From Eledone cirrhosa (lineage: Eukaryota): a DNA stretch of 64,000 nt. The first letter of the stretch is position 1. Each line of letters opens with the position of its first letter. The stretch lies in contig OZ024742.1 in the NCBI GenBank assembly GCA_964016885.1, positions 271,312,001 to 271,376,000 on the forward strand. Reading direction: 5' to 3'. Shown piece by piece: positions 1-22,761 of the stretch. The position numbers and the translations under genes are program-made. The notes beneath the pieces were generated by a model. It had not been told where the DNA came from. It saw only the letters and a list, made by a program, of their open reading frames with translations, and made no database searches.

Positions 1-1345
1 TTTGAATAATATAAAAATATTATCATAAACCGAAGGTACACTGTAAGCAAACACACCATGTCGTCAGACCTTTGTATTGGAATGATATGAACATATTTTA
101 TACACTAGATAAAAGAGAAAGAAGGAGGTAGGAAGAGAAGGGGAAGAGGGAAGTGAGTAAGGTGGAGGGAGTCCTAGGATTTAAGACTGTCAGACTAGTA
201 GAGATTGTAAGGAGAGAATGTTTTGGCAGCAGTTAGCTTAATGAGGCGTGTTAGGGCTGGCGGGTGAAGTAAATTCTTCTAGTGGTGTTGTTCGGACAAG
301 ATTTAGTTAAAGGGGTCAAAGTGGTACAGAGTTACAGGCAAGTTATTGGGGCTTTTATAGTAGCAGGTTATTTCTAAAGGGGTCCATAAAACAGTGTTTA
401 GTACTATTATTACAGAAAGCCATATCTTGTGTATAAATATATAAAACGGTGGTGTAAAAAGGTAACAGTATATGCATTTAAAAAAAGAAAAACTCGTTTT
501 CAAACGATGGTTACAGTATAGTGAACGTTCAATTTTGCTGTTCAAAAGTTTGTTTACCGACGTTAAAATGCAGTATATCTCCAAATTGCATAATTTGCAG
601 AATCGATGATTTTGCTTATATGCAGGCGCAGAAGCAATAATTTGCCAATCAAGGGAGAATGCTTGATTGTTCCTCCGGAGCTGCCAGGCTTTATCGGCGA
701 GGGTTGTTACGGAGCGCATTTTCTCGTGCCTGATCGAAGATCGATGTTGGTATAGGCGAGCTTTGAAAGAAGTTGCGGTACATCCAACGTAATAACATTT
801 GTTGGTTCCGGAATTTATTGTTCATCGGTAGACAATATTGCGTGCTAGGCACTGGTTATTCATTGGGCACGTACCTGGTTTGGTGCAGTTACAATTATTT
901 TTATGTTTTGCAGTAGAATCCTGGATAGTTTGGTGGGGTTGTAGTTGCGTGTTAGTGCGTTGTATGTTGCTATGCTGGTGCGCTGAGTCAATAGGGATGT
1001 ACTTATTTAGTATTGCTGAGTTGAGTTTTTTAATTAGTTGTTCTATGTTAGGTGCAGTGGAGTATGAGAGTCTAATGGTGCGCGAGTTAAAGATTTTATA
1101 GTATTTATGTGAAGTTGTAAAGTGTTTATTGATTAGTGTATAGAATTGTGAGATAATCTTAGGTAACCCATACACTATAGAAACAATTGTTACCTAATAA
1201 ATTCTTTATACCCGCATTTCCATTTCATAAACTTCTCCTTATTTTCTCCGGATTTTAAAACACACTTTATTATACGTTGAGCAATCTCCGACGTCGGTTG
1301 ACTCCATCCAATGCAACTACTTAGTAACATTGGAATACAAATTTA
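1..1345 (-). mobile_element. Penelope-like element (PLE) 3' fragment: GIY-YIG endonuclease end plus 3' UTR on minus strand; 1176-1345 is probably the inverted terminal tail ending in (TA)n
   Basis: ORFs 822-1175 (NCNCTKPGTCPMNNQCLARNIVY) and 303-719 (WQIIASAPAYK..FCKLCNLE..LLNSKIE..CNHR) align with the C-terminus of the 17200-19161 PLE protein. A hammerhead 5' core CTGACGA lies on the minus strand at 61-67; the rest would run off the window. Confidence 0.85.
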
Positions 1346-2389
1346 CTATATATATATATATATATATATATATTTGATAGTGCTTGTGCATAATGACATA
1401 TATTTAAGTATAATTTATGCAAAGTAAAAGATGACATTTGCTAAACCAGTTGAAAAACATGAAACTTAACATTATTACTAAAACATATGTTATGTCTCTC
1501 CTCAAGAAAGCACTAGAATTCAGTCATGTTTATGTAGAGCTAACTTTATCCATGAAAATACGTTTCGCCACACCTATGCACATATCATTTTAAAATAATC
1601 CTAGCCCATTCGAATTCTTTCTTTTTACCGAATACACTGTAACGTGTGTCATTAGTAAATTTGATTTTATTAAACTTATCAAATTATTTTCAGAAAGAAC
1701 CTAATTTCTAACACTGTGTAACCTAAATTCCATGTGTCCTAATAAATCCCAACATCGACGATAATGTATTCACATGCAAATAAACACATCTGAGACACTA
1801 CTACTTTAATACCAAGTGTATTACTTGGCATTTCTTCCTTAGCAACATTCCTATAAGGTTCGCTTCTTAACGTATTTATTAAAGTATCTGTATGATTTGT
1901 CCATATACATTCATATTCGTTTCAAATTTGCGCATATCTAACGTAGATCTTAATTAGTGATGGCGTTTGTGCAATCAATGTATAAGAATTCCATTGAATT
2001 TTCATGTTTTTTCATAAGAAGCGAAAATCATTTAGGAAATTAATATCCTACATATAATCTACTAAGCCGCAAATTGGCATTATATGAATCTTTATAGTTG
2101 TTTCACAACTAGTTTGGAACCCCATATAAATAGAATCGAAAGTAAATAGTGTCTAAATTATTTTAGACTTAGGGAATTATTCAAATTCTCATTAACAATA
2201 TGACTGCATGTATACGTTCCTGGTCCCCAAACTACACAAAGGAGGCATTGGGGTGCCATATTGAAATACGCGTTTCTGGGGAATTTTTAAACCAAGGCGA
2301 GTCCATCAATCTTCAGGTCTAAATACAGTAAATTTATTCCAGAAGAGAATAGAGAGTGAGAGAATGGAAATGAGAAAGAGCTGTAAAGG

Positions 2390-2545
2390 AAGAATCGATC
2401 CCAGTACTAGACTGATACATATTTTATCAAACGCGAATAGGTGAAACGCAAGGTAGCCGCTGTGAGATTTGATCTCAGAGAACAAAGAGCCGAAACGAAT
2501 ACCATTCACGTATACGAGGTTCTCATGACTCAACTCGCCACCTTA
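2390..2545 (-). mobile_element. Degenerate tRNA-derived SINE (Nin-domain type)
   Basis: Minus strand reads GAGATCAAATC (B-box-like) ... TTTCACCTATTCGCGTTTGATAAAATATGTATCAGT, a diverged version of the SINE at 7211-7398. Confidence 0.5.
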
Positions 2546-3680
2546 TAATATAACCTAAACGCACACTGCCAACTCACCCATAGTTGGTTTAATTATGTTA
2601 CAAAATTGTGTTCATCTACGCTTTTTCCTCCAATAAGGTTCACGATATAAAATTGTTGTAAAATATGGCATCTAGCCATATTGATATACAATAGACATCT
2701 GTGAATGATAGGAACTTGTACAAACATTTTAGTGATTGGATTATTCAGAAGAACACTGAATCCCAGAACTCAGAATTTTTCTTAATTAAACTCAAGACCA
2801 ATACTACATATTGCTCACAAACGTAATATTAGCCATCATCACTTATTCCATGTCTTCTTCATATAATCTTTCACTAAGTTATGTTGACATGCTTCTGTAT
2901 CATAAATCACCTTTCTGGATAAACGAACATTTGTTTCCTCCATACTTATCTATTAGATCCTTCAAATGCGATCGTTCTTCATAAGATATCCTCTTAACAC
3001 TCACACGGTCCCTTGTGTCCACCCGTCATGAAACCTGTCTCATGTGCATGGTTGATGTGCAGGTTCGAACCCAGTCCTTTGGACAGTCAGTCCTGTATCT
3101 TATATAACCCTATGCATCACAGTCTTCAAGTATTTTATGTAAATTTATGCAAATCCCAATAATGTCCGGATGGCGTGAACAGATATCCCTTTGCATCTGT
3201 TTCATGTATACATTCTTTTTTCCAGTATCTTATTTTATTTTATATTATTTTATGTTATTATATTTGATGTACGTAGACGCATGTTTATCTATGCCCCCCC
3301 CCCCCCACACGTTATATGTGACTAGTGCATGGCTAATATATAGATACTGCATTTATGCATATTGTGTGTGCAGTTTCAGCATAATATGAGTTGAGTCCAA
3401 GCCTCAAGAACGTTGTCTCATATAATATTGTATGCGCCATGTGCACAGTTGCGTGTGTGTGTGTGAATGTGTGGGTAGTCATCAAGTATATGCTCTTTTT
3501 TAAGAGGTATAGGCATGCCCATGTGCATGCCCATTCGCGGGTACATGTATACATATGTACGCATACACGCATGCAGGTATGTGTATGCATGTCCGGGTGT
3601 ATCTAATTGTATGAACATGTATGTGTAGGTGTATGCATACCTATGTGTAGATTCACAATTTTTTCATCTGTATATGCGTG

Positions 3681-21655: not shown

Positions 21656-21767
21656 ATATATATATATATATATATATATATATATATATATATATATATA
21701 TATATATATATATATATATATATATATATATATATATATATATATATATATATATATATATATATAT
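21656..21767. repeat. (TA)n microsatellite
   Basis: Pure TA run. Confidence 0.97.
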
Positions 21768-22325
21768 AACATATTAAAAAAATAATGAATAAAACAATGA
21801 AACAGTTCCTTATATTAAACAAAAAAAGTTCATTATTTAACGATCGTTTCTAGGACATATATGTGTTAGAATTGGCATGCACACTCAAAAGATCTATGTA
21901 CAAAATTATACAAAATTATACAAACTATCAAATAGAATATACATACCAACACATACATATGCCGTCTTCAGAAATAATATTATTTCTGAAGACGGCATAT
22001 GTATGTGTTGGTATGTATATTCTATTTGATAGTTTGTATAATTTTGTATAATTTTGTACATAGATCTTTTGAGTGTGCATGCCAATTCTAACACATATAT
22101 GTCCTAGAAACGATCGTTAAATAATGAACTTTTTTTGTTTAATATAAGGAACTGTTTCATTGTTTTATTCATTATTTTTTTTATATTTTATCTTGACTCT
22201 GTATTCCGTTTATCTTTCACCGAAAGTGATTTTTGAATGCATCTCTTCTTTCCATGATATCCGGATTACATTGAGTTCTTCATACGGATTGGACACTACC
22301 GTAAACTTTTGGTAGATTTATCTAC
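21768..22325. mobile_element. Fold-back PLE pLTR forming a spacer-less ~410-bp palindrome plus tail
   Basis: Centre 21978/21979 (identical mirror ORFs 21863-22051+ and 21906-22094-); arms about 21772-22186; tail to 22325. Confidence 0.88.
21979..22125 (+). ncRNA. Type I hammerhead ribozyme with very long stem II (mirror copy 21832-21978 on minus)
   Basis: Stem I ATTATTT/AAATAAT, CTGAAGA at 21986, ~114-nt stem II region (ATATGTATGTGTTGG...CTAACACATATATGT), GAAA at 22107, palindromic CGATCG, GUU site. Confidence 0.8.
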
Positions 22326-22340
22326 ATATATATATATATA

Positions 22341-22761
22341 TATATTATAAAGAAAACGAAAAATCAGTGATGCATGTGATCTTAGTTTATTTCGTGTTAC
22401 AAATGTTTCGCCGGCATGTAGCTCGAGTCATGGTCCTTGTATGGATCTGGCTGATTCTACTTCTGCGGGTTCTTTCAGACACGGGTGTTATGTCCGGATC
22501 AAATTTATGAGCGATAAAATTTGCTCCGAACATAACACCCGTGTCAGAAAGAACCAACAGAAGTAGAATCAGCCTGATCCATACAAGGACCATGACTGGA
22601 GCTACATGACGGCGAAACATTTGTAACATGAAATAGACTAAGTCCAGATGCATCACTGATTTTTCGTTTTCTTTATAATATATACACTCTACTCTGATGA
22701 ATATCGAGTGCTAATTTTGGCATACCGCCTACGGAAGCACCATAGCTACCACTATACTCAA
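22341..22761. mobile_element. Older fold-back PLE pLTR end with half hammerhead and tail
   Basis: Imperfect palindrome 22341-22684 centred near 22511. GAAA CATTTG TA at 22614-22625 (stem III and GUA site; the 5' core is lost by truncation). Tail 22685-22761. Confidence 0.75.

Follow-up and report, generated by a model that had tools for sequence, protein, structure and literature searches.

A conserved pair of bulged hairpins near the ends of Hydra-clade Penelope-like elements and its probable role in reverse transcription

To our knowledge, the structure typical of Penelope-like elements (PLEs), an inverted copy joined to a tail, has long been without a mechanism. The reverse transcriptases (RTs) of PLEs are the closest relatives of telomerase and, like it, start inside the RNA. 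Here we analyse 64,000 nucleotides (nt) of Eledone cirrhosa (contig OZ024742.1, positions 271,312,001 to 271,376,000; the window), the first 23 kb of which, in a genome of 3.0 Gb, is occupied by nested fold-back insertions inside (TA)n runs. The closest described group is the Hydra clade of endonuclease-containing (EN+) PLEs (Craig et al. 2021, PMC8557442, drawn on in part, as are the other papers cited here). It shares with the families studied here the RW[KR] and DKT motifs, the CxCx5C linker, CxxC and CxH around the E and N of the endonuclease, the C-terminal GIY-YIG domain, the (TA)n target and the inverted truncated copy with a tail, and its hammerhead motif has a candidate counterpart in them, whereas the tails measure about 45 to 160 nt in the present families and 30 to 40 nt in that report. 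The closest biochemical precedent is the Poseidon element PAc of Anolis (Frangieh et al. 2024, PMC11167929), for which in vitro work located two internal RT start sites that coincide with the two ends of the tail and lie 3' of the hammerhead; each strand of the target is cut and extended, and the protein is predicted to dimerize. Sequence comparisons show that Hydra-clade PLEs carry a conserved bulged hairpin twice between the hammerhead-like motif and the start codon, and we consider it probable that each copy docks one element-encoded RT, which would start a few bases 5' of it. The hairpin pair itself is a real conserved cis-element and is new for this known clade: the words hairpin and stem-loop occur nowhere in the main text and supplement text of PMC8557442, figures aside, and we found no description of the hairpin in the literature on Penelope-like elements, a search whose scope did not extend to figures and subscription journals, including the original Penelope tail papers.

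Judged by sequence motifs, the families to which an open reading frame (ORF) could be tied are Hydra-clade PLEs, with E4, E5, E7 and E8 lacking a tied ORF and family B placed by an N-terminal fragment only. A single ORF with RT and C-terminal GIY-YIG was read in P1, A, E1 and L085; these domains were read from motifs because a Pfam search with the protein P0001 matched neither RT nor GIY-YIG. The RWK-type (RW[KR]) motif and the replacement of DKG by DKT occur in all four ORFs from this genome and in 109 and 107, respectively, of 114 aligned relatives, and the CxCx5C linker in all four and in 108 of the 114. CxxC and CxH stand beside a conserved E and N in the three complete ORFs (the fourth frame ends early), and by eye CCHH is absent from the alignment of the four. 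An assignment to the Neptune clade was rejected, as the DKG motif is absent and the CX2-5CxxC linker was found in none of the four ORFs. Insertion is into (TA)n, and a pattern scan found hammerhead-like cores (CTGANGA...GAAA) 5' of several tails, none with an Rfam match in the window. Some cores deviate from CTGANGA (CTGAAAG.. in P1, locus L127; TTGA.A in A, L124), and stem II is long or branched. The original prediction had described the window's PLE families as unrelated; this does not hold, with three ORFs 38 to 46% identical to that of the window's own family and Hydra-clade motifs common to all.

The motif from which this work started, TTGAG(T/C) in the tails, had been taken for unpaired sequence. 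It is instead the 2-nt bulge plus the 3' strand of a covarying hairpin, 5'-RCTC-stem-loop-stem-NN-GAGY-RCT, in which GAGY pairs with RCTC close to the start of the tail. A complementary 5' strand is present at all eight sites originally listed, including TCGAGT and CAGAGC, and these two degenerate sites are true homologues of the others because the first two letters of the motif are the variable bulge (TT, TC, TA, CA or TG). The inner stem has 1 to 6 pairs and the loop 2 to 90 nt, and RCT usually follows GAGY. The 12 positions given for the motifs proved exact, and enrichment was confirmed in tails collected from inverted repeats without use of the motif (92 tails in 38 clusters, from evenly spaced 10-kb stretches of the genome, 59 in a first and 59 in a second set): TTGAGY was found in 10 of the 38 clusters, with 1.15 expected from dinucleotide shuffles, and outside the window its family-weighted count was 6.4 of 35 clusters against 1.0 expected. 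By itself TTGAGY is common, with 51 sites on both strands of the 64 kb. A stricter hairpin pattern matched 32 times in the 59 loci of the second set (5.2 expected from block shuffles), and 26 of these 32 had (TA)n within 200 nt downstream, compared with 28 of 136 occurrences of the 3' motif that lack a hairpin, the background being 17%. In the window it gave seven matches at six sites, every one of them within tails. By eye, possible variants with GGA or GAA replacing GAG (TTY/GGA, TTTC/GAAA) were seen at L006:7475-7545, L051:6779-6843 and L026:6129-6223.

The ACGGA proposed as a conserved companion of the motif is present in the window (12194..12198 on the plus strand, also 22284, 22731 and minus 15938-15942) and is no general feature. 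It is weakly enriched outside the window (3.4 of 35 clusters, 1.1 expected), shows no bias toward microsatellite-abutting ends (39 downstream and 47 upstream, and 34 and 34) and is nearly absent from foreign loci (1 of 21 untranslated regions [UTRs], 0.6 expected); on these grounds it was ruled out as a second conserved element.

The hairpin is also present in Hydra-like elements of other organisms. An alignment of the four ORFs was used to fetch 44 loci from metagenome and genome collections, of which 37 had usable upstream sequence; the other seven (L220, L242, L245, L247, L251, L253 and L259) had no sequence upstream of the ORF start or a C-terminal match only. At least one hairpin was found in 28 of the 37 UTRs (7.2 expected) and at least two in 14 (1.3 expected), counts that are not independent events since the hairpins are related by descent. 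RNAalifold gave no consensus pairs for a MAFFT alignment of 41 hairpins, as the variable loops shift the 5' strands out of register, and a test anchored on the 3' flank was used in its place. Here, a fully Watson-Crick 5' strand together with an inner pair after a 2-nt bulge was present at 31 of 43 sites (1.4 expected), while bulges of 0, 1, 3 and 4 nt gave 3, 3, 12 and 8. Beside the common stem GCTC/GAGC, the anchored sites include the compensatory GCAC/GTGC, GTTC/GAAC and ACTC/GAGT, and family F has TCTC/GAGA. Among the six new Hydra consensuses in the supplement of PMC8557442, examined by eye, Hydra-1_Ajap has both hairpins, Hydra-2_Amil, Hydra-2_Ajap and Hydra-1_Crog (GCCC/GGGC) have one each, Hydra-1_Obim has one doubtful candidate, and the supplement passage for Hydra-1_Amil contains none. 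Rfam gave no match at six foreign loci, and its matches in the window, which fell on simple repeats and fold-backs and were of microRNA-type and similar families, all stayed under the gathering score. Hydra-like retroelements also lie on contigs filed as bacterial metagenome-assembled genomes (L254-L259), which is probably eukaryotic contamination.

This covariation bears on whether the motif could act as DNA, as a promoter element (an option of the original prediction) or a host factor site for the downstream tandem unit. The sequence GAGNNCTC is near-palindromic, the letters of the bulge and of the 3' flank are conserved, and the motif lies in the 5' region, where promoters have been reported for Penelope and Chlamys. 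A promoter box fits poorly with stems that both covary over loops of 2 to 90 nt and prefer a 2-nt bulge, and with two copies that are each tied to an element end. Moreover, at two loci a change of GAG to GTG is followed by the 5' strand while the 3' ACTC flank stays, which is evidence against a palindrome. We found no support for the promoter option and regard a DNA site of this kind as very improbable. The broader proposal of a cis-element conserved across families stands, and recognition by RT or endonuclease, its other option, fits well; what has to be given up is the linear motif, in favour of a structured and duplicated one.

In full-length tandem copies, the tail sits between the hammerhead-like core and the start codon, and a second hairpin was found just past the long end in all ten families for which both hairpin 1 and a read-through copy were available (A, B, P1, L053, E1, E4, L014, L022, L085 and F). 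Copy ends are bimodal: short arms stop about 5 to 11 nt 5' of hairpin 1, and long arms at a like distance 5' of hairpin 2. The modal distances from end to next hairpin, for hairpin 1 and hairpin 2, are 8 and 6 nt in A, 6 and 9 in B, 6 and 6 in L053, 6-11 and 9 in E4, 7 and 8 in L014, 6-8 and 8 in L085, and 5-7 and 9-11 in E1; for hairpin 2 alone they are 8 in P1, 9 in L022 and 6 in F. These values come from two rounds of mapping, the second with microsatellites masked, and some distances were measured by eye at hairpins that had escaped the script. The modal ends overlap the (TA)n target by 2 to 6 TA-like nt. At nine foreign loci, examined by eye, a second copy ends 6 to 13 nt before a hairpin, in eight of them into (TA)n. 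Locus L004 seemed to have a third end and a second hairpin, but it turned out to be a chimera of two families and was dropped. Of 77 head-to-head pairs, 74 join a long to a short end, three are long with long and none is short with short, and in families A and B the arms are more alike within than between insertions, which supports a single template.

The clustering of ends just 5' of either hairpin means that the tail equals the hairpin spacing, and the tail, being the RNA between the two proposed start points, must contain hairpin 1, while hairpin 2 would never lie in a terminus. This would be why only one motif was originally noticed and why its distance from the tail end is loose. The distance of mostly 55 to 85 nt given for it is right for six of the eight sites (70, 58, 81, 130, 69, 55, 58 and 51 nt), and it is not fixed; the constant distance is the one to the end 5' of the hairpin.

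These end maps, combined with the in vitro data for Poseidon (PMC11167929), suggest the docking and priming model. In its fullest form, programmed double priming, one RNA would carry two RT-docking hairpins, a protein dimer would occupy one each, and from both ends of a double-strand cut in (TA)n synthesis would begin at a set position slightly 5' of each hairpin; we give this scheme slightly less than an even chance. The endonuclease would cut both strands of (TA)n, the freed DNA ends would pair briefly with the UA-rich linker, one priming at hairpin 1 and the other at hairpin 2, and the two truncated complementary DNAs (cDNAs) would join head to head. The step with two protein copies on one RNA, where the second would have to displace the first cDNA, is the weakest.

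The main rival is trimming by the endonuclease guided by the same hairpin. Here, the GIY-YIG domain would read the hairpin in cDNA or in a cruciform and shorten a more extended intermediate by cutting in the TA-like linker that precedes each copy, so that the ends are cut sites. The end geometry and the TA-like linkers fit this too, PMC8557442 ascribes the tail to EN-mediated resolution, and earlier work cited in PMC11167929 found the Penelope tail to be needed for EN recognition of a plasmid. The counts of G-U (11) and A-C (10) pairs favour neither strand as the folded one. Direct mapping in Poseidon, however, puts the RT starts at the tail ends (PMC11167929), and the long arm would have to pass hairpin 1 uncut almost every time to give 74 of 77 mixed pairs. 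Trimming appears unlikely to us.

The same strand counts point to neither a sense nor an antisense template, and an antisense, self-primed template has been proposed before (PMC3846280). On such a template the hairpins would halt synthesis a few bases before the stem, in the way that template-adjacent helices stop the RT of telomerase at the template boundary (PMC4993307). However, the ends abut the (TA)n target, as expected of priming sites, chance read-through of hairpin 1 predicts many long+long and short+short pairs where three and none were seen, and sense RNA works in vitro (PMC11167929). We give this explanation very little credence.

Group II introns and hepatitis B virus (HBV) have stems close to start codons to which RT binds, and hairpin 2 begins 37 to 148 nt ahead of the start codon in seven families. 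It could thus be argued that the hairpins serve mainly in the assembly of the ribonucleoprotein or in translational control, with the end spacing a by-product of an A/U-rich single-stranded linker beside any stem. Against this, the distance to the start codon is variable and that to the ends tight, and family E4, with no detectable ORF, retains both hairpins. As the main function, it seems to us hardly probable, although such a role can coexist with the docking of RT.

The two hairpins are not identical. Hairpin 2 opens its inner stem with C-G in the families of this genome (the register is uncertain in the single L014 copy) and at the majority of foreign loci; in hairpin 1 this pair is often T-A and the stem longer. 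The contrast was seen in L124, L184, L134, L157, L125, L127, L159, L173, L198 and L135 and in the foreign L216-L258, and it could let the protein tell the sites apart. Both hairpins of a family share family-specific 3' flanks (AA in E1, TAATTT in L022 and GCTTT in B; loci L125, L173, L184 and L135), and in L085 both have the same odd 1-nt bulge. This likeness within families suggests joint evolution with their own protein.

Several observations weigh against the docking of RT at paired hairpins. The in vitro precedent belongs to another clade, and its start region is described as an AC-rich stem loop without homology to the target (PMC11167929). Of 10 window sites, 5 have strong predicted pairing and the other 5 weak (0.03-0.34), and the strand counts given above do not favour the RNA strand that docking would use. 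A hairpin pattern fixed before the second set was fetched matched only 13 of the 38 tail clusters (1.5 expected; 3 on the reverse strand and 3 in host flank). Among the ten clusters new in the second set it matched three (0.45 expected), one of them apparently by accident, and the host-flank control for the same pattern gave 3 of 10 in the second set and 0 of 28 in the first. By itself, this test is modest. The tail extractor truncated some tails at internal AT runs (the L053 family) and let in non-PLE repeats, so the 13 of 38 is no estimate for Hydra families. The stricter pattern was set after the tails had been seen, and for many of the 77 pairs the locus had been retrieved by a long-end query, so that one long end or more was bound to be present in these pairs. 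Irregular hairpins occur: L085 has 1-nt bulges, the single L014 read-through a 3-nt bulge and E1 outer mismatches, and hairpin 2 of P1, L053 and E4 has a single inner pair. The arms of L053 are not more alike within than between insertions. No hairpin was recognised in one abundant family whose ends are both fixed and whose tail measures 60 nt (L027:2188-2360, L072 and L173), and hairpin status is not settled in several smaller clusters.

Within the window, the predicted pairing of the hairpins ranges from weak to strong. Hairpin 1 of E1 (1245..1285, plus strand) has TCTC/GAGC with the outer pair mismatched, two inner pairs, a TT bulge and a pairing probability of only 0.03; it lies beside a C-terminal ORF remnant of E1 with GIY-YIG on the minus strand (477..1145), found by tblastn with P0001 at 29% identity and containing one in-frame stop. 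Hairpin 1 of family A (5874..5900, plus) has ACTC/GAGT, four inner pairs, a TT bulge and an ACT flank, and it recurs on the minus strand in the left long arm (5482..5508) and as a third copy (7579..7605), both missing from the original prediction. The E4 fold-back spans 7729..12236 and has no strand of its own, with a short end at 7729, a long end at 12236 and arms 99% alike across 2.1 kb. A hammerhead-like core without an Rfam match precedes its tail (11989..12030, plus, by pattern scan), and hairpin 1 (12102..12164, plus) combines ACTC/GAGT with five inner pairs, a 40-nt loop and a TT bulge at a pairing probability of about 0.85. The E4 unit is 2.5 to 2.8 kb long and has no detectable coding similarity, which makes the family presumably non-autonomous; its copies (the window's and L130-L134) are 97 to 99% alike and show the hammerhead-like core and internal duplications of about 510 and 70 nt.

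The E5 hairpin 1 (15964..15987, minus) has GCTC/GAGC, four inner pairs and the CA bulge that had been noted as CAGAGC, with a pairing probability of 1.0. Its partner short arm ends near 23177, and some 6 kb separate the two arms, as elements of P1, B, E7 and E8 sit in the intervening (TA)n runs, which makes 15927-23177 deeply nested. The P1 insertion has its long end at 16983 and its partner short end near 20693; its hairpin 1 (17104..17140, minus) has GCTC/GAGC, six inner pairs and a TT bulge (0.98). The 5'-truncated Hydra-clade ORF at 17158..19161 (plus), with RT, the CxCx5C linker and GIY-YIG, is an open frame of 667 amino acids with at least 150 near-identical matches across the genome; full-length copies have a frame of 832. 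Family B has a hammerhead-like core from the pattern scan 5' of its tail (21469..21510, plus) and a hairpin 1 (21574..21595, plus) with ACTC/GAGT, two inner pairs, a TT bulge and a GCT flank (0.97). Those of E7 (22196..22279, plus) and E8 (22686..22712, plus) also have ACTC/GAGT, the former with four inner pairs, a long inner domain and a TT bulge (0.99), the latter with two inner pairs and the TC bulge noted as TCGAGT (0.33). Apart from these, 3681-4643 holds a 30-copy tandem repeat of a 32-nt unit with an internal TATATA.

The proposed mechanism has partial parallels. In L1 twin priming, both target ends prime and an inversion results, with a variable second site and two cDNAs that copy different parts; in the present elements, the two sites are fixed beside hairpins and the arms overlap. 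HBV epsilon is a short RT-bound stem with conserved flanks that sets the copying site. The template-adjacent helices of telomerase RNA (PMC4993307) are alike in joining a short RT-bound stem to conserved flanking letters and in setting where copying occurs, but the boundary helix is found 5' of the template, where it brings synthesis to a stop, whereas the Hydra hairpin lies 3' of the proposed start, and we claim no homology. PAc differs in that its start sites are inside the ORF near one AC-rich stem loop, and the parts of PMC11167929 drawn on here describe no duplicated docking motif and report no target homology of the kind seen in the 2- to 6-nt TA-like overlaps of our families.

What selects the two internal start sites was not identified in the sole in vitro study, and a short, duplicated, covarying RNA element at a fixed distance from both ends offers exact mutations and spacing changes with which to ask. 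The hairpin is also a practical marker from which the 5' region and the two ends of Hydra elements can be predicted, their non-coding derivatives included. If the model is true, a hairpin of about 25 nt could be moved to any RNA as a start signal and would there direct internal initiation of the telomerase-like kind, and twin hairpins acting as RT start signals would explain the one-sided tail of PLE insertions.

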